Of a DNA stretch of 37,260 bases, positions 24,340 through 33,129 are shown piece by piece (the stretch's first letter is position 1; every line of letters begins with the position of its first letter). A program made the translations under genes and the position numbers. The notes below the pieces were generated by a model, which worked only from the letters and a program-made list of their open reading frames with translations, searched no databases and was not told the DNA's origin. Source of the stretch: a virus. The stretch lies in the UHGV virus genome UHGV-0198360. One strand, 5' to 3'.

Positions 24340-25170
24340 TTACGCGATATTTATCACATCTTCACTTTTAGTCACCCGGTTCAGTTGAGAACTTGAATAA
24401 CTCTCCTCCTGGAAACATTTGGTCACCAAGATTTCATAGAATGGTTTCCAGCTATAACGCCACGTCCGGTCTGGCAGACTGGGCAACTCGGAAAAAACAC
24501 CGCGATAGGCAACCGATGATTTTGGCCTGCTGTATCCCCGACCTTCACAGCGCTTACATTCTTTGTAAACCGGTACGCCCTGCAGTTCTGTCGCTTTACG
24601 GTCAATAGTCTTACCTGTGCCGCCGCACTGGCATCGCTTACTTAACTTTCCGGTGCCATGGCAGCGGGAACATAACGTATGATCAGTGTCAGTTACATCG
24701 CGCTTAACCTCAAAGTCAGATGGTGACTGTCTCAGGTCTTTTGCCCATTGTGGCAATCGCATTGTGTAATGGCTTTTAGTCACGGTTTTAGTGGTTGTAA
24801 GCAACCCTTTACCACTACATTTTGGGCATGCCACACAATCAGCTGCTGATGAGGAATAATCGTTATAGGCAAACCGGGCAAGGATACGCATGCAGAGGGG
24901 AAACTTTTTCCCTGATGCTTTACGAATAGCCATGGGAGCATGCTCTTTCGCGTACTCCGTTAGCCAGGCAATTGACGCCTCCCTGTCCTGGCTGCTGATA
25001 CAAGCTTTACCCAGAAACATTGCCAGCCCGATGCCCGCATCAGCCTGAGTCATCCCCAGTGCCGCCATTACATCAGTCACAGTAAGTTGCTCACTTGCTG
25101 TCGCTCTGCTGGTATCTGAGATGTGCATGCCTTTAGGCGCAAAAAACTTTAAAACATTGTCCAGATTCAT
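24340..25170 (-). CDS. Late antiterminator Q-like protein with four CxxCxGxG zinc-finger repeats
   Basis: ORF trimmed to ATG at 25170 (SD GGAGA); repeats CPKCSGKG, CSRCHGTG, CQCGGTG, CKRCEGRG; position immediately upstream of late promoter/terminator and lysis genes. Confidence 0.6.
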   Translation of the reverse strand: MNLDNVLKFFAPKGMHISDTSRATASEQLTVTDVMAALGMTQADAGIGLAMFLGKACISSQDREASIAWLTEYAKEHAPMAIRKASGKKFPLCMRILARFAYNDYSSSAADCVACPKCSGKGLLTTTKTVTKSHYTMRLPQWAKDLRQSPSDFEVKRDVTDTDHTLCSRCHGTGKLSKRCQCGGTGKTIDRKATELQGVPVYKECKRCEGRGYSRPKSSVAYRGVFSELPSLPDRTWRYSWKPFYEILVTKCFQEESYSSSQLNRVTKSEDVINIA

Positions 25171-25186
25171 ACGGTCTCCATACTTC

Positions 25187-26146
25187 TTAAGCTGTCGCAA
25201 TTACGCCGATCGCCAGCGCCCGATCCATAAAACGCAGTAGCAGCTCAAGCTGCGTACCATGCTTTTGCTCGAATGCCGGTACATCGGCGTGTAACTCATC
25301 GTGGCACTCTCTGCACAGAGGGATCACGAAGAGGTCATGGGCTTTTGTTGCTGTACCACCCATACCGTGCCCTACGATATGGTGCGGATCATCTGCTGGC
25401 CGTCGGCAACACTCACAGGGTTGTGTTTTAACCCAGCGGGTGTACGTCTCATTTATCCAGCGGCGTCGCTTTGGCCTGAGCATGAAAGACTCTGGCGACT
25501 CTGGATCAACAGAGAGCGTGAGGATCTTCTTCGCCTTCTCCTGAACGAGTCTGGTTGCTGACGAGGAAGGCACTATGTCGCTTTCCCTCATGACAGAACG
25601 GATCTTCTCATCCGGAAGGCGCAGCCCTTTGTGCGCAACGCTTTCCGGAATAATATCAGCCAGGTCGTTTCTGACCATCCACCAGCACAGTTCCGGAAGC
25701 GTCAGGATATGCGACTCGGGAAAACCAGAATCACGCCGAATGACTTCCAGAATCCAGGATACCAGGTTTCCGGCCGCTATACCTGCAAGCTGTTCGGTAT
25801 GCTGCCCCGACAAAGTGTGATCGCAATGCCAGCACAGGCGAATACTTCCTGGTGGGTGCCGCATTGTTGTGAAGTTCTTGTCGTGCCACGATGAATGTGG
25901 CCACTGGCATTCAAACCGATTACTCAACCATTGCTCAAGGGAAGAAATCCCACCGGCACGCTGAATAACCCTCTCATTCTCGAAGACCTGACGCATTACC
26001 GGATCATCAGTCAGCGGCTGAATGGCTGCCGGAACAGCCCCGGTACTGAATGACGCCATTTCTTCTGGTTCAGGCTCGAGCAGAACGCGACCACGCATGA
26101 AGAGGTGCATCAGTTCCGCACCAGGACGGAACAACACAATCCCCAT
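25187..26146 (-). CDS. DUF968-like protein with C-terminal HNH-like Cys/His motif (start uncertain)
   Basis: ORF track (342 aa from GTG at 26215); C-terminal CECCRRPADDPHHIV...CRECHDELH; several in-frame Met candidates and none has a strong SD. Confidence 0.5.
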   Translation of the reverse strand: MGIVLFRPGAELMHLFMRGRVLLEPEPEEMASFSTGAVPAAIQPLTDDPVMRQVFENERVIQRAGGISSLEQWLSNRFECQWPHSSWHDKNFTTMRHPPGSIRLCWHCDHTLSGQHTEQLAGIAAGNLVSWILEVIRRDSGFPESHILTLPELCWWMVRNDLADIIPESVAHKGLRLPDEKIRSVMRESDIVPSSSATRLVQEKAKKILTLSVDPESPESFMLRPKRRRWINETYTRWVKTQPCECCRRPADDPHHIVGHGMGGTATKAHDLFVIPLCRECHDELHADVPAFEQKHGTQLELLLRFMDRALAIGVIATA

Positions 26147-26178
26147 ACGATGGGCGATCTCGGGGGTAAGCAGAGCTC

Positions 26179-26862
26179 TCACGCGACCTGCCCCCTGGCA
26201 ATGTGTTCTGCCCACAGTCCACCAATCCAGCGCACGCCTTTCGCCGTGAAACGTGCCTGGCTGAATGCATGATTTGAGGTTACGGATGTGCCGGTTTTCA
26301 CTTCAAAACGGCCCGCATCAATATGCTGATGCCGTGGGGTCATCGTTCCGCCAAGGCGATACATAATGTCGTTCTCAAGGAGGAATAACCGCAGATCTGG
26401 CTCTTTGGCCTTAAGCAGTTTTGCCACCTGGCGGAATGACATTGACCCACTGGCTGTACAGTACCGATCAACAAACGCTACCTTCGGCGCCGCGGCAGCC
26501 AGTTCGTTAGTCAACTGCTGTTTTTGTTCTGCAAGGTCAGCTGCAAGACGTAGGGCTTCAGAGAATGATTGAGGAATCGTCTGCTGCTGTGCCTGCTCAA
26601 GCTCCTGCCAGCGATCAACCAGACGCGCGGTAAACTCCGGCGACAGCTGCGCGACAACGATATAACTGTCCCGCTTCCCTATCAGATAAACCGATACCGA
26701 CTGATTGAGGTGATTTTTAACTTCCCCCATTGGGGGGAGTTCAATAACACCGCGCTCTGCCAGGCGTTCAATGGACCGTTTAACATGGTCATGTCGTGAT
26801 TCCACCAGCTCAGCAATATCGCTGCTGGACATGGTTAATGCTGTTGTTGCTAACTGGCTCAT
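26179..26862 (-). CDS. Rha-family phage regulatory protein / antirepressor-like (227 aa)
   Basis: ORF trimmed to ATG with SD GGAGAAAAGT; N-terminus MSSSDIAELVESRHDHVKRSIERL matches the Rha-family pattern. Confidence 0.6.
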   Translation of the reverse strand: MSQLATTALTMSSSDIAELVESRHDHVKRSIERLAERGVIELPPMGEVKNHLNQSVSVYLIGKRDSYIVVAQLSPEFTARLVDRWQELEQAQQQTIPQSFSEALRLAADLAEQKQQLTNELAAAAPKVAFVDRYCTASGSMSFRQVAKLLKAKEPDLRLFLLENDIMYRLGGTMTPRHQHIDAGRFEVKTGTSVTSNHAFSQARFTAKGVRWIGGLWAEHIARGQVA

Positions 26863-26875
26863 ACTTTTCTCCATA

Positions 26876-27262
26876 TCAGGCGGCTGCACCCGCCGGTTCA
26901 TATCTGCTGATCGTTATCTCTACCCGACCTTTCGGCACTACGGGTCCCCATTCCACCAGCATGCGCTTAATCTGGCTGTCGTCTTCCCAGACACCCGCAT
27001 GCGTCAGCGCGTCAAACAGGGCTTTGTTGTAATTATCGATATCCCGGCGGCGCGCATCCGGCGGGTACAGAGTGATTTCTACCGCTGCCAGTTCAGTCGA
27101 TGGCTTCGGGAGACGTCGTAATTGCTCAATGATCGCCACGCAGGCAGCGCTCTGGTATTTACGACCATCAGCGCTAATGAGGTGACGACCGGCCAGCGGC
27201 CCCTTATTAGGGGCGCGCCAGTACGTGTTCACGCTCGGAGGGAACGGGAGCACAAGTTTCAT
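26876..27262 (-). CDS. rusA: Holliday junction resolvase RusA (128 aa)
   Basis: ORF trimmed to ATG (SD AGGAGGTGGC, ATGA overlap with methyltransferase stop); MKLVLPFPPSVNTYW and Asp-rich catalytic region typical of RusA. Confidence 0.8.
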   Translation of the reverse strand: MKLVLPFPPSVNTYWRAPNKGPLAGRHLISADGRKYQSAACVAIIEQLRRLPKPSTELAAVEITLYPPDARRRDIDNYNKALFDALTHAGVWEDDSQIKRMLVEWGPVVPKGRVEITISRYEPAGAAA

Positions 27263-29076
27263 GCCACCTCCTGCTGTTGCACTGCACACAGTTCCGGAAG
27301 ATTTGCCTCCACCAGCGCCCTGGCGAATGGTGGTGGTACCGCATTACCGCAGCGGGCTACCTGCTTATCTTTTGCATAGAGATTTCCACGGTAGTCCTGA
27401 TCAATAACGTAACCATCCGGGAAGCCCTGCGCTTTGTAGAGTTCATGCGGCTGCAACATGCGCATTCCGATATCAACGATCTGGTATTTAACCCCATCGA
27501 TCGTTACCAGCCATTCATCGTCACTTTCCCCGCAATACGTCTCGAGAAATGTGCGTACCTCACCCACGTGTTGGCCACCAGCGGTGATTGTTGGCATTGG
27601 CACATCAAGGCGTTGCCCGTCGCGGCATGTTCCACGCAGTTTCACCAGATGAGAGGCAACTACCGCATGATGGTCGACAGTGGTCACTGAATGCGCGGGT
27701 TCATCCATACTGACACCCGGCCCCGTATAGTTACCGCCGTAGTGTTTCGCCAGGAACGCGCCCACCAATTGTGATTTACCGCCACCACCAGCTGTAATTG
27801 TGGCGCTCGGTTCGTCTGCCCGGTGGCCGACGCTGGCCCCAAACTGGCGGGCTATCACTGGCGCAACAAGACAGGCGCGGGATTGCTTCAGAATGGTATG
27901 AGCAGGTTTATCCAGCGGGCGCGGTTTAGCCTGGTATTCACTACCACCATTACCCGCCAGAAATGGTGTTAGTGCAGCCTCAACAATCCCGAGAGCATGC
28001 CCATTCCCACCCGGACGTTTTGATGTGCCAGCGGTTACCGTCGGGACAGGTTCGGTAACGGGCTGCCCGGTTGCGCCAGTGCGGAATTTTGTCAGATGTG
28101 GAACAGCTAACGCGTAACCGTGGGTTTTAGTAATAGTTTGCAAAGGCTCGTCCAGCTTCTGACCGCGGAAACAGTCGTAACTCGTTTTGGTGCTGGTGTG
28201 ATTGCACTTCACGATAAACGGCGACGCACTTTCGATAACAAAGCGCTGTATGCCGCGCGCGATCCGCTTCAGAGTGTTCTCCGCCAGCGGTTTTTTGCGG
28301 TCGAAGATGGACAGGGCCGGAACATTCCAGTCGATACATTCCGCAGCGGTACGCCATGGCATCAGCCTGCCACTTTGCACCTCCAGCGACTTAGGATCCC
28401 CATGGCTAACAGCAGGCCACTGGATTGGGCAACCATCGCAACGCATAACCATGAAGAAGCGTTTGCGGATCGTCGGCGCGCCGTAATCACACGCGCGTAG
28501 TTCGCGATAATCAACATCATATCCGAGCCCATCCACCAGCTTTTGCGCCTGCTCGCTACCTCTTTCGATAGACAGAAACTCACAAACCTCAGCCAGTGCC
28601 GGGTGATCAGCAGGAATGCCAGTGGACAGCATGCCGACAAATGCATTGAATGTTTCGCCAGTGCGGGCAGGATCCGGACGCATTTCATCGGCCAGCAGCG
28701 GTCCCCACGTTTTGAACTCTTCCACGTTCTCCAGCATCATCACGCGCGGTCGCTTTGCCAGTGCCCAACGCAGAACAATCCAGGCCAGACCGCGTATCTC
28801 TTTTTTCACTGGCTTTGCGCCTTTTGCCTTCGAGAAGTGTCGGCAGTCCGGGCTAAACCATGCCAGGCCGACAGGATTACCGCCGGTGGCAGCTACCGGA
28901 TCCACGTCAAAAACGGATTCACAATAATGCAGTGTGTCCGGGTGGTTCGTCTTGTGCATCGCAATGGCGTTTTCGTCGTGGTTGATCGCAATATCCACGC
29001 TGCGCCCGATCGCCAGTTCAATACCCGTTGATGCGCCACCGCCACCAGCAAAGTTATCAACAATAATCTCACGCAT
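27259..29076 (-). CDS. DNA cytosine-5 methyltransferase (605 aa)
   Basis: ORF track; motif I DNFAGGGG, PC motif region SPDCRHFS, ENV motif MLENVEEF. Confidence 0.8.
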   Translation of the reverse strand: MREIIVDNFAGGGGASTGIELAIGRSVDIAINHDENAIAMHKTNHPDTLHYCESVFDVDPVAATGGNPVGLAWFSPDCRHFSKAKGAKPVKKEIRGLAWIVLRWALAKRPRVMMLENVEEFKTWGPLLADEMRPDPARTGETFNAFVGMLSTGIPADHPALAEVCEFLSIERGSEQAQKLVDGLGYDVDYRELRACDYGAPTIRKRFFMVMRCDGCPIQWPAVSHGDPKSLEVQSGRLMPWRTAAECIDWNVPALSIFDRKKPLAENTLKRIARGIQRFVIESASPFIVKCNHTSTKTSYDCFRGQKLDEPLQTITKTHGYALAVPHLTKFRTGATGQPVTEPVPTVTAGTSKRPGGNGHALGIVEAALTPFLAGNGGSEYQAKPRPLDKPAHTILKQSRACLVAPVIARQFGASVGHRADEPSATITAGGGGKSQLVGAFLAKHYGGNYTGPGVSMDEPAHSVTTVDHHAVVASHLVKLRGTCRDGQRLDVPMPTITAGGQHVGEVRTFLETYCGESDDEWLVTIDGVKYQIVDIGMRMLQPHELYKAQGFPDGYVIDQDYRGNLYAKDKQVARCGNAVPPPFARALVEANLPELCAVQQQEVA

Positions 29077-30391
29077 GGGTTACCCCCTGCATGCTGCCGA
29101 CAAGACCACGCGCAATTGTGATGATTTCGCTGGTGGCCGTTCGTTCCAGCCAGAGTTGATTGATGTTGGCTTTCAGCTTGTTCTGCTGTGATTCATCCAG
29201 CATGTCAGCGCCGTCTACCTGGTCGAATACAATTCCAACCTCCAGCGGCCAGATACGGGACTCGGGAAGCGGATCCGATACTGGTTTAGCTTTCTCACGG
29301 ATGTGCATGCGGATCTGGCGAATATTGGACCAACTGGAAACATCCAGGCTTCCCATAGCTGCAATGAAATCAGTACTGTTCATGCCATATTCACCAGATG
29401 CTTCGAGGGCAACAGTACGAATACGTTCCGACATATCCAGGCGCGCAGCAGCGTCATCGAATTCAATCGACAACAGCCACTCATCCACACCGAACAAAAT
29501 ACTCTCACGAATAAGCAGCTTCGCTTTGTCGATCGTTAATGGTGATACCTGAGTGAATTCCGGTGCTTCGACAGAATCCGCCGCCCAGGTATGCCCAAAC
29601 TTCGATTCACTGAATGTGTATTCTTCTTTATCGCCGAACGCAGCTCTAACGCATGCCCACGCCTCGACACCGCTGATATCAAAAATATCTTTCTGGGTAA
29701 GTGGCAACTCTGCTTCTGGCTTGTCAGCTACAGATGGTATGGCAGTTGCAGGTTGAGACTTGCTGGCAGCAAATTGCGCCAAAGTCATAAACGCCCGCCC
29801 TTTTGCCTCCAGTTCAGTACGGTTGATATAGCTGAACCGCTCACCACGCCATGAGTTATCGAATACAGCTATGGCACCGGCAAAAAACGCGCTGGTGGGC
29901 TTCTGTTTTTCGTCAGCAGGTACAAACCACACTGGCAGATCGAACCCAATGCGCCCGCGAATGAATACAATGTGATCGGCATCTTCCGGCCACCACGTTT
30001 CACTTGGCGCGGCTTTTATCAGGAATACATAGCGACCGCCCTTCTCGCGCTGGGCTGCTGCGTACTTCATGATGTGCGTCATACCAGTGATCGCCTGTTT
30101 CTCGTGGTACTGCGAACGGCTATACGGTGGGTTGCCATAACCTGCACCACCCAGTTCTGCCAGACGTTCAGACCAGTCCTGGGTCAGCGCGTTATCTTCG
30201 GCGGTGTACCATGCCGGGCATTTCGCGTTGTCGTCGTCAGCAAACAAGTCCAGAACTAATGGGCCAAATAACGCGTTGATCCCCCAGAAAAGCAGATCAG
30301 GTGTCCTCCACTGATCTCCAACTTCTTTCAATTCGTGAGCTGGTTTACTGCGCAGTTCTGCCAGCGCCTGGCAATATTTATTTGGCATCAT
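29069..30391 (-). CDS. Phage Dam-like N6-adenine methyltransferase domain fused to a ~250-aa domain of unknown function (440 aa)
   Basis: ORF track; NPPY motif (GYGNPPYSRS) in N-terminal third; C-terminal part unrecognised; ATGA overlap with upstream replication gene. Confidence 0.6.
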   Translation of the reverse strand: MMPNKYCQALAELRSKPAHELKEVGDQWRTPDLLFWGINALFGPLVLDLFADDDNAKCPAWYTAEDNALTQDWSERLAELGGAGYGNPPYSRSQYHEKQAITGMTHIMKYAAAQREKGGRYVFLIKAAPSETWWPEDADHIVFIRGRIGFDLPVWFVPADEKQKPTSAFFAGAIAVFDNSWRGERFSYINRTELEAKGRAFMTLAQFAASKSQPATAIPSVADKPEAELPLTQKDIFDISGVEAWACVRAAFGDKEEYTFSESKFGHTWAADSVEAPEFTQVSPLTIDKAKLLIRESILFGVDEWLLSIEFDDAAARLDMSERIRTVALEASGEYGMNSTDFIAAMGSLDVSSWSNIRQIRMHIREKAKPVSDPLPESRIWPLEVGIVFDQVDGADMLDESQQNKLKANINQLWLERTATSEIITIARGLVGSMQGVTHA

Positions 30392-31254
30392 GAGCGGAAC
30401 CCCGAATTTTCTGGCAGTGAATAGTCAACATTTTGGAAGTTGGCGCGGCTGGCTGAGTTAGTCGCCCATTTACCGTTAACGCGTTCAGGTCGCCCAGCGG
30501 CAGACCATTTGGTCGCGCTTTGCAGGTAACCGGGGAAGTTTTTTGGAATAAACAGAGTTGCCGGGCGGAGGTATTGAGCCTGCTCGCTATCACGCCAATC
30601 AGCGTTTTTGTAATCCACCACAAGGCACAGATCATCAACAGTGAACTGTTCCCGCAGACGGGCGCGAATGTTCTCCAGCGACGTGCTGCATACCTGGTAG
30701 CGTGAACCAGTTGTCTGGTTCAGGTAAGACAAAACCTGTCTGGCCTGATCAGTAATCACAACCTCAGGGTCGGGTTGCGCCGCAACCGGACAAGAGGGTT
30801 TTGAAGTTACTTGTGGATCTTGTTTTGATTTTACTGACGGATCCCCGCCAGATTCTGACGGGTCAAAACCGCCTTTTTTGCCAGATTTCGACGGGTCAGT
30901 TTTTGAGGCGTCAAAATTTGATGCGTCAGATTTTGACGTGTCAGAATCTGACAGTTGAGAAAATGCGGCAGCCTGAAGTTTCGCCACATTCAGGCGGTAC
31001 ACGTTCGAAGCATTACGGTTACCATTACGGCGCTGTGTACGCGTGAGCCAGCCATCTTTTTCAAGCTTTGCGATTGCCGTTCTGATAGTGCTCGGCCCTG
31101 CGCCAAGCTGGCGAGCAATAGTTTCAATGGACGGCCAGCACACACCCTCATCGCTGCTGAAATCAGCGAGACGGGCCATGATCGCGACACTAGACAACTT
31201 CATGCCCGACGCCGCGCAACCATCCCATACGTAGCCGGTTAATTTAGTGCTCAT
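30388..31254 (-). CDS. Replication initiator (lambda O-like; N-terminal HTH, C-terminal conserved phage domain) (288 aa)
   Basis: ORF track; SD GGGAGAT; N-terminal winged-HTH-like region; internal iteron array encodes a low-complexity linker (SDSDTSKSDASNFDASKTDPSKS). Confidence 0.7.
   Translation of the reverse strand: MSTKLTGYVWDGCAASGMKLSSVAIMARLADFSSDEGVCWPSIETIARQLGAGPSTIRTAIAKLEKDGWLTRTQRRNGNRNASNVYRLNVAKLQAAAFSQLSDSDTSKSDASNFDASKTDPSKSGKKGGFDPSESGGDPSVKSKQDPQVTSKPSCPVAAQPDPEVVITDQARQVLSYLNQTTGSRYQVCSTSLENIRARLREQFTVDDLCLVVDYKNADWRDSEQAQYLRPATLFIPKNFPGYLQSATKWSAAGRPERVNGKWATNSASRANFQNVDYSLPENSGFRS
30826..30953. repeat. Iteron-like repeat array (candidate origin of replication) inside the initiator gene
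   Basis: Copies of the ~12-bp motif GATTYYGACGKG at 30851, 30883 and 30928, plus palindromic TCAGAATCTGA and TCAAAATTTGA elements. Confidence 0.55.
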
Positions 31255-31423
31255 GATCGTCCGTTATCTCCCTGAACTTTTGCCTGAAATGCTCAAGTGG
31301 GCTGAAGCATTCGTGTGGATATCCATCACGCAGGTAGATAACGCGCTGTGTTTCTGGCTCCCAGCGGATAACACGAACTGGCACTCCGCGATGATCTTTG
31401 AACCTTCGGTTAAGTTCGCGCAC
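31244..31423 (-). CDS. Possible small protein (~59 aa, GTG start) between YdaT/CII-like and initiator genes
   Basis: Hand-translated frame (VRELNRRFKDHRGVPVRVIRWEPETQRVIYLRDGYPHECFSPLEHFRQKFREITDDHEH*); SD GGAGGG 10 nt upstream; below the ORF-track length cut-off. Confidence 0.3.
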   Translation of the reverse strand: MRELNRRFKDHRGVPVRVIRWEPETQRVIYLRDGYPHECFSPLEHFRQKFREITDDHEH

Positions 31424-32373: not shown

Positions 32374-32472
32374 TTTTCCCTCTGGAGTTAAGTAATGCAG
32401 TGCACTGATAGTAGGATATCTTACATTGATTGGTCAAGCACTCCTACATCAGATAATGGTAGGATTACCTAC
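32374..32472. promoter_or_regulatory. Divergent promoter/operator region (OR-like; PR for cro, PRM for cI)
   Basis: Minus strand TTGACC - 18 nt - TACTAT upstream of cro; plus strand GATAAT about 15 nt before the cI start; operator-like ATAGTAGGATATCTTACATT (32408-32427) and inverted TCCTAC...GTAGGA (32442-32464). Confidence 0.55.
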
Positions 32473-33129
32473 ATGAAAATGAATGATCGAATCCGAAGCA
32501 GACGAAAAGAGCTAAAGATGACGCAATCCGTCCTGGCAAAGCTCGTCGGGGTTAATCGCGTCACTATCACCGGTTGGGAATCCGGTGACTACAAACCGGG
32601 TGGTGAAAACCTCCAGGCGCTTGCGGCTGCATTAGAAAAGACACCGCAGTGGTTACTGGATGGAAAGGATGATGGAAGTCAGCAGCCACCAACTATGGAC
32701 CCGGAGCAAAGATTCGGAATTAGGTCAGTTCCCGTTCTCACATGGGTACAGGCCGGGGAATGGACGGCCAATTGCGTAGCGATCACAGAGCGGGACATTC
32801 ATGACTGGGTCTATACTTCGGCTGCCGTTTCTGAAAGTGCATTTGCACTCATTGTTCGCGGCGACTCGATGACCAACCCTACAGGTGCACCAAGTATTCC
32901 CGAAGGTTCTATTGTCGTTGTAGAACCTGATTTTGGTGATGCCAGTCAAGCTAATGGTAAAATTGTTATTGCACAGCTTATGGGCAGTGATGAAGCCACT
33001 ATTAAAAAGTTCGTCATCGATGGGCCGCTGAAATACCTAGTACCTCTTAACCCCAATTACAGGACTTTAGAAGTCAATGGCAACTGCCGATTGGTAGGAT
33101 TAGTAAGACAAGTAATAATGGATTTATAA
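32473..33129 (+). CDS. CI-like repressor with LexA-type S24 autopeptidase domain (218 aa)
   Basis: Track ORF trimmed to ATG at 32473 (SD AGGA); N-terminal HTH (MTQSVLAKLVGVNRVTITGWE), C-terminal S24 motifs (GDSM, KIVIAQL). Confidence 0.8.
   Translation: MKMNDRIRSRRKELKMTQSVLAKLVGVNRVTITGWESGDYKPGGENLQALAAALEKTPQWLLDGKDDGSQQPPTMDPEQRFGIRSVPVLTWVQAGEWTANCVAITERDIHDWVYTSAAVSESAFALIVRGDSMTNPTGAPSIPEGSIVVVEPDFGDASQANGKIVIAQLMGSDEATIKKFVIDGPLKYLVPLNPNYRTLEVNGNCRLVGLVRQVIMDL

Follow-up and report, generated by a model that had tools for sequence, protein, structure and literature searches.

A candidate replication origin within the linker-coding part of an HTH_36 / Phg_2220_C initiator gene of a lambdoid Citrobacter prophage

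In bacteriophage lambda (NC_001416) the replication origin, ori-lambda, lies inside the gene of its own initiator, where four iterons at codons 117-145 of O are followed by an A-rich tract and then by a palindromic stretch, and these repeats impose a low-complexity linker on the encoded peptide (PMC7466680). The placement of an origin inside an initiator gene is textbook knowledge for lambda and has been raised for P22 and for phage L, two lambdoid phages with non-lambda initiators whose gene 18 carries its own repeat set inside the coding region; for phage L, six imprecise 11-bp repeats were proposed as the origin from sequence alone (PMC8022706). We analysed the UHGV virus genome UHGV-0198360, a DNA stretch of 37,260 nucleotides (hereafter the window, meaning the whole stretch), in which a repeat array lies in the linker-coding part of a replication-initiator gene of the HTH_36 / Phg_2220_C family. 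Our comparisons indicated that the DNA block containing this array is probably the prophage origin of bidirectional (theta) replication.

Comparison of the block with ori-lambda showed that in both elements dyad sites are found in the middle of the gene, after the codons of the DNA-binding domain, with a tract that is A-rich on the coding strand and then a dyad behind them; ori-lambda is transcribed from the early rightward promoter, as the block would be, and both elements impose a low-complexity linker. However, the initiator of the window carries HTH_36 and Phg_2220_C instead of Phage_rep_O and is unrelated to lambda O in sequence, the sites are abutting 15-bp units instead of 18-bp iterons spaced by about 20-24 bp, the A-rich part is made of two GATC-headed 24-bp repeats and is much less A+T-rich, and no P-like helicase loader gene follows the initiator. 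The prophage resembles P22 and phage L in having a non-lambda initiator with a repeat set of its own inside the coding region, but their repeats and initiator family are different, and gene 12 of P22 and L encodes a DnaB-type helicase, which the prophage lacks. In Shiga toxin (Stx) phages the number of iterons varies and each extra iteron lengthens the O linker (PMC7466680). The parallel here is that the number of units varies from 2 to 9 among homologues, in 15-bp steps, one extra unit in the Escherichia coli Nissle prophage adding five residues, while the O proteins and the six iterons of Stx phages 933W and P27 are, unlike those of the window, genuinely of the lambda type.

Two systems outside the lambdoid phages were also compared. 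The 13-mers of E. coli oriC and the repeats of plasmid P1 oriR are short and GATC-bearing, and they adjoin the initiator sites, either within the unwinding region or alongside it; the block differs from them in having only two GATC sites and an initiator other than DnaA or RepA. Plasmid iteron replicons (Rep_3 / RepA / pi / TrfA) share with this locus a winged-helix initiator and an array of sites by an unwinding element, which is a proposed one in the window, but their iterons are located outside rep and are direct repeats of 17-22 bp recognised by monomers, whereas those of the window are 15-bp dyads inside the gene. The initiator gave no Rep_3 match in Pfam and only a sub-threshold RP-C match (18.6 bits for a cut-off of 24.4), and as judged from these features the initiator and its array are not a Rep_3-type plasmid replicon.

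Tandem Repeats Finder (TRF) reported a period-15 array of 4.7 copies at positions 30882-30952, and a repeat search added a further offset copy at 30846-30868 together with dense nested inverted repeats. Six cores (minus-strand core TCARAWTCTGAC) are located at 30940-30951, 30925-30936, 30910-30921, 30895-30906, 30880-30891 and 30847-30858. A search of both strands with at most one mismatch gave 8 matches to this core for 0.53 expected, a number that none of 100 shuffled sequences reached, and all of the matches were inside 30847-30952, with none elsewhere in the 37 kb. The original prediction had placed several copies of a motif of about 12 bp, plus palindromic variants, at 30826-30953. The motif GATTYYGACGKG is real, with exact copies at 30851, 30884 and 30929 of the plus strand and, when one mismatch was allowed, 5 matches for 1.08 expected (0/100 shuffles reached 5), but its period is 15 bp and not 12 bp. 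Dyads were found as predicted; they are not separate variants, however, but the 15-bp units themselves, of which unit 1, TGTCAGATTCTGACA, is a perfect 15-bp palindrome while CGTCAAAATCTGACG is also dyad-symmetric. The predicted interval contains the array but not the whole DNA-constrained element, which extends from about 30766 to 30960. The assignment of the repeats to the low-complexity linker part of the initiator gene was confirmed, the array occupying codons 102-136, downstream of the DNA-binding-domain codons, in a minus-strand gene at the position of lambda O. The proposal that the repeats explain the repetitive peptide was confirmed as well: the 15-bp period corresponds to five codons and, because it lies in frame, gives D-x-S-K-S pentapeptide repeats.

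In several homologues, the 30-bp period scored better in TRF than the 15-bp period (81-88% vs 75-81% matches). The spacers of successive units, in the window (30882-30952) and in the homologues, are CCG and GCA (Pro/Ala) in alternation, a pattern suggestive of a super-repeat of two units, about three helical turns long.

We then compared the codons of the linker with those of the two flanking domains. Eighty loci related to the N-terminal domain and linker were fetched, with one genome per species and 45-98% identity, spanning the Enterobacterales from Citrobacter to Proteus, Providencia and Morganella; 78 full open reading frames were aligned as protein, and the codons were threaded onto the alignment. 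Synonymous-codon identity was defined, per column, as the share of same-amino-acid pairs that also have the same codon. This identity was almost twice as high in the linker as in either flanking domain (Table 1), with Mann-Whitney p values of about 5e-21 and 1e-20, while the amino-acid identity of the linker was lower than that of the winged-helix domain. The difference was seen for individual amino acids, the codon score increasing from 0.42 elsewhere to 0.86 in the linker for Ser, from 0.57 to 0.92 for Lys and from 0.41 to 0.94 for Val. Within a unit, the core codons Ser, Lys, Ser and Asp had synonymous identities that were mostly 0.9-1.0 (Asp 0.62-0.84), whereas the fifth codon, which forms the 3-bp spacer, was free (0.40-0.62 synonymous and 0.23-0.37 amino-acid identity). 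A frozen core next to a free spacer indicates a motif-specific constraint and makes it less likely that the segment was simply exchanged recently.

The most conserved box, TTTGACCCGTCAGAATCTGG, is usually read as F-D-P-S-E-S-G, but it is retained in a shifted frame in phiP27 and in the Citrobacter locus L091, where it is read as VLTLQNLDP and VFTRQNLTP, respectively. Among the homologues, the Asp codon before Pro was GAT and not GAC by 124:3 where GATC results, whereas Asp was mostly GAC inside the units. An overlapping gene was considered and rejected, since stops interrupt each of the other five frames in at least the majority of the 78 homologues (the best was open in 23/78). Because synonymous identity peaks in the linker, the motif survives a frame shift and no alternative frame is open, selection preserves the DNA of the block and not the encoded peptide.

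Repeats are kept in related initiator genes, either as the same array or, when the N-terminal domain has diverged, as other dyad repeats at the same site. SfIV, phiP27 and EKP1 have the same N-terminal domain and the same array joined to different C-terminal regions. The core survives to about 50% N-terminal identity. When this identity is 45-47% (Mixta and Morganella, L093 and L094) the centre of the core becomes TCAAATATTGA, and when it is 35-43% (SfV, Min27, Klebsiella ST13-OXA48phi12.5 and Vibrio phages) the same gene position is occupied by unrelated dyads of 15 bp that recur every 21-24 bp, for example GGGCAGGAGCTGCCC, TGCCACCAGATGGCA, GTGCAGGAGTTGCAC and GTGACAAAATGTCAC. From these comparisons, the array appears to travel with the N-terminal domain and to change when the domain changes. 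A count of the C-terminal types by single-linkage clustering was discarded, as the types were over-merged through a shared terminal tail. The enterobacterial-type gene was also found in assemblies or phage records that bear the names Chryseobacterium, Vagococcus, Martelella, Pseudomonas lundensis and Elizabethkingia phage EKP1 (L024, L027, L056, L081 and L007), for which contamination or mislabelling is the likely cause.

The elements of the block are listed in Table 1. The 33-bp step between the cores of units 5 and 6 recurs among the homologues, where it appears as 48 and 63 when degenerate units are skipped. Each of the A-rich 24-bp repeats is headed by a GATC (30840-30843 and 30816-30819, 24 bp apart); synonymous identity over these repeats was 0.9-1.0, and the G+C content of 30796-30843 was about 38-42% compared with about 52-58% in the flanks. 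At the distal edge, the arms of the dyad (GGTTGC and GCAACC) are kept while its centre is variable in homologues with the same C-terminal type. Both the box unit and the GATC repeat also behave as repeat elements themselves, since each occurs in several copies, spaced by 24 bp, in the Proteus/Providencia branch. GATC as a whole is not enriched in the window (134 vs 137 expected); the pair in the block could act as a control point of the methylation or SeqA type. A DnaA box was considered at 30811-30819 of the minus strand, where AGATCCACA resembles a weak box, and was rejected because most homologues carry GATCCATCA there. The box of the window in its longer form, CGTCAGAATCTGGCGGGGATCC (30837-30860, minus strand), resembles CGTCAGAGAATTCTGGCGAATCC of lambda (39161-39183; 1162-1184 of L095), which is located to the right of the AT-rich tract, and the two peptides are also alike (PSESGGD in the window and SSENSGE in lambda); this likeness may be due to chance.

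Table 1. Coordinates of the initiator gene and of the elements of the block, with codon and amino-acid identities for the three parts of the gene
Feature	Position	Strand or reading	Details
Replication-initiator gene, 288 amino acids	30388..31254	minus	N-terminal winged helix, low-complexity linker, C-terminal Phg_2220_C domain
Winged helix-turn-helix DNA-binding domain, presumed iteron reader (codons 1-98)	30961..31254	minus	Pfam HTH_36, GntR and MarR matches
Whole DNA-constrained block, candidate origin	30766..30960 (codons about 99-163)		synonymous identity 0.81 vs 0.42 and 0.46
Five abutting 15-bp iteron units	30880..30953	coding strand, minus	TGTCAGATTCTGACA, CGTCAAAATCTGACG, CATCAAATTTTGACG, CCTCAAAAACTGACC, CGTCGAAATCTGGCA
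A6-tract spacer between units 5 and 6	30859..30879	minus	AAAAAAGGCGGTTTTGACCCG, A6/T4; core-to-core 33 bp
Sixth unit	30847..30858	minus-strand reading	TCAGAATCTGGC, inside most conserved box TTTGACCCGTCAGAATCTGG
Two A-rich 24-bp direct repeats, proposed unwinding element	30796..30843	coding strand	GATCCGTCAGTAAAATCAAAACAA, GATCCACAAGTAACTTCAAAACCC
GC-rich dyad, distal edge of block	30773..30787	inverted repeat	GGTTGCG-G-CGCAACC
Winged-helix domain	codons 2-97		synonymous-codon identity 0.42; amino-acid identity 0.75
Linker	codons 99-162		synonymous-codon identity 0.81; amino-acid identity 0.55
C-terminal domain	codons 165-288		synonymous-codon identity 0.46; amino-acid identity 0.36

The candidate origin with a lambda-like placement that had been predicted is supported in silico by the selection on DNA, by the linkage to the N-terminal domain and by the order of the elements. 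In the mechanism that we propose, transcription from the cro-side promoter (candidate at 32437-32408) would produce the initiator and would also cross the element, as in lambda. Dimers of the N-terminal winged-helix domain would bind the dyad sites, whose half-sites, (G)TCA and TGA(C), are separated by about 10 bp, a distance compatible with such a dimer; the five abutting sites would be filled at 15-bp spacing, and the sixth 33 bp further on. A complex similar to the lambda 'O-some' would then stress the adjacent A-rich 24-bp GATC repeats and lead to their opening, and the C-terminal Phg_2220_C domain would bring in the host helicase (DnaB, with DnaC). Recruitment of the host proteins is proposed because no P-, DnaC-, helicase- or primase-like gene was found, by gene content and Pfam, between the initiator and Q (24340-30388).

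Several points weigh against an origin at this position. No helicase loader is encoded nearby, and the helicase-recruitment step of the mechanism is a guess. We infer initiator binding, unwinding and autonomous replication from sequence, and our literature search found no published origin description or experiment for any member of the HTH_36 / Phg_2220_C family. At about 38% G+C over 48 bp, the putative unwinding element is only moderately rich in A+T and falls well short of the lambda tract, and the abutting 15-bp sites are tighter than the lambda spacing of about 20-24 bp, which may not allow all of them to be occupied at once. The AlphaFold2 model of the initiator had a mean predicted local distance difference test (pLDDT) score of 55, from a shallow input alignment (31 sequences, all at least 82% identical), and was confident only for the C-terminal helical domain, which made it too poor a basis for assigning domains other than those from Pfam; a Foldseek search of the PDB with this model gave no fold match (best E = 1.3). 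Finally, when the codon test was run on lambda O, all 80 loci were 99-100% identical to lambda, which left no divergence for the test.

A methylation-gated origin that needs no phage-encoded loader, with a control logic closer to that of oriC and P1 oriR than to that of lambda, is a tentative possibility to which we give a rather low probability. The two GATC sites would then be a switch for opening or sequestration, acted on by the phage Dam fusion, which carries an unknown 240-amino-acid domain and sits where lambda has P, and Phg_2220_C or the C-terminal ...VDYSxP..GFR(S/G) tail would directly recruit the host DnaB/DnaC.

It is unlikely that the units are protein-binding sites with another role (autoregulation, copy control, handcuffing or exclusion) and that the origin is located elsewhere. 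Constraint on the DNA and dyad symmetry show only that something reads the DNA, and the A-rich element is weak, but the elements are placed and ordered as in ori-lambda, and the A-rich GATC repeats and the adjoining dyad are constrained as strongly as the sites. Moreover, the motif has no copy in the promoter region or anywhere else in the window, and the replication module showed no second candidate rich in repeats.

The block could also be a linker at a module boundary, or a recently exchanged segment, acting as a hot spot for the shuffling of N- and C-terminal domains, since differing C-terminal regions are joined just downstream of it and the number of 15-bp copies varies. We consider this quite improbable: the core positions are frozen while the spacer codons and copy number vary, the amino-acid identity of the linker (0.55) is below that of the DNA-binding domain (0.75), and a generic joint does not predict the unrelated dyad arrays that distant relatives have at the same place. 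The recombination-linker and origin explanations are not mutually exclusive.

According to a third explanation, the feature concerns the peptide alone, the Ser/Asp/Lys linker having arisen by replication slippage and the DNA repeats being its functionless by-product. The in-frame 15-bp units, the D-x-S-K-S repeats and the predicted lack of structure speak for it; the nearly invariant synonymous codons, the reading of the same DNA in another frame by phiP27 and L091 and the context-specific choice of the Asp codon largely refute it, and its probability is very small. A cis-acting RNA element (mRNA structure, translational pause site, antisense RNA target or template) is just as improbable, for although the single strand folds far better than shuffled versions (z = -5.2), this fold is a trivial outcome of tandem palindromes, a copy number of 2 to 9 would alter any global fold, the sequence and not compensatory pairs is conserved, no promoter or terminator was predicted in or beside the block, and an Rfam scan of the block gave no family but only chance-level microRNA hairpin matches far below threshold.

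An origin in this block would narrow the location of that of a widespread enterobacterial prophage group down to about 200 bp. Relatives in E. coli Nissle 1917, the serotype-converting phages SfII and SfIV of Shigella, Citrobacter phage phiNP and prophages of Klebsiella belong to this group. The array supplies a testable consensus for the putative binding site of the initiator. It also calls for caution in reading such conservation at the protein level, as the 'disordered linker' is encoded by the most conserved DNA of the gene. The presence of the origin-in-gene design in a family that shows no detectable similarity to lambda O suggests convergence or a very old modular inheritance. Less ordinary features are the near-frozen synonymous sites across a bacterial order, the motif kept through a frame shift, the abutting 15-bp dyads and the two codon-preserved GATC sites near a phage Dam gene. 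The block could be used for typing replication modules, for lambda-dv-like vectors and for predicting prophage incompatibility and exclusion.

The initiator is assigned by its domain matches to the HTH_36 / Phg_2220_C phage replication-initiation proteins, both domains being above the curated Pfam cut-offs: HTH_36 at amino acids 23-70 (E 8e-12, 45.2 bits for a cut-off of 25) and Phg_2220_C at amino acids 174-245 (E 1e-25, 89.7 bits for a cut-off of 27). TIGR02220 was also matched (74.2 bits for a cut-off of 66.65), as were the PHROG annotations 'primosomal protein', 'replication initiation protein' and 'replication initiation O-like', with E values down to 3e-81. The comparison with DnaD-like proteins gave 21.7 bits for Pfam DnaD_N, below the cut-off of 27, and matches to the PHROG 'DnaD-like helicase loader' at E 1e-6 to 3e-6. 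A search of the PDB with the initiator sequence gave marginal MarR-type matches only, and the linker is without predicted structure in the AlphaFold2 model.

The original prediction had called this gene O-like, which holds for its position and architecture but not for its family. Phage_rep_O (PF04492) gave no match to the initiator at E <= 0.01 in Pfam, whereas lambda O itself matched it at E 5.7e-36, and BLASTP of the initiator against lambda O gave E 0.94, with no detectable similarity. On these comparisons the initiator falls outside the lambda O family. Relatives labelled 'replication protein O' are found in phiNP, SfII, SfIV and many E. coli prophages including that of Nissle 1917, and the N-terminal half of the gene was matched in about 1,850 of 5,426 complete E. 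coli genomes. An identical protein (P0001) is present in Citrobacter freundii, and the nearest genome locus is that of C. murliniae. The last codons of the gene (30388-30430) encode an extreme C-terminal peptide, ...VDYSLPENSGFRS (or ...VDYSQIPAGFRG), that SfIV, SfV and the window protein have in common despite their differing C-terminal domains (L002, L013). One possible role of this shared peptide is that of a short motif on which a host protein docks.

The initiator occupies the lambda O position in the early operon of a lambdoid Citrobacter prophage, because the gene order is a LexA-type cI (32395-33129, plus strand), a P22-type cro, a CII-like gene, a DUF4222 gene and the initiator, followed by a Dam fusion, a C5 methylase, RusA, Ant/Rha, DUF968, Q and a holin. 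The region between the initiator and Q (24340-30388) thus holds the Dam fusion, a C5 cytosine methylase of 605 amino acids, RusA, Ant/Rha and DUF968. Among relatives with other C-terminal domains, the next genes are DnaC-like (phiP27) or encode a primase-helicase (EKP1 and SI8). The gene at the 'P position' (29069-30391, minus strand) encodes a phage Dam methyltransferase (PF05869, amino acids 19-199) extended by about 240 residues without a Pfam match. In 31 of the 80 loci the initiator is followed, at a distance of at most 1.5 kb, by a Dam gene, which is directly adjacent in 19; the C-terminal extension was present in 17.

PLSDB matches were mostly prophages in megaplasmids or mislabelled chromosomes, with no clean mini-replicon among them. 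One record, NZ_CP148542.1 (L096), is a circular E. coli 'plasmid' of 15,977 bp with the order cI-cro-initiator (46% N-terminal identity)-DnaC-like ... Q-lysis; it could be a naturally occurring lambda-dv-like replicon or a product of misassembly, and we did not use it as evidence.

The DUF4222 gene (31244-31423, minus strand) encodes 59 amino acids and overlaps the start of the initiator by 11 nucleotides. No published function for DUF4222 was found in the literature. By tblastn, this gene abuts the initiator start in 60 of the 80 homologous loci, a tight linkage which suggests that its product is a small accessory protein of the replication module.

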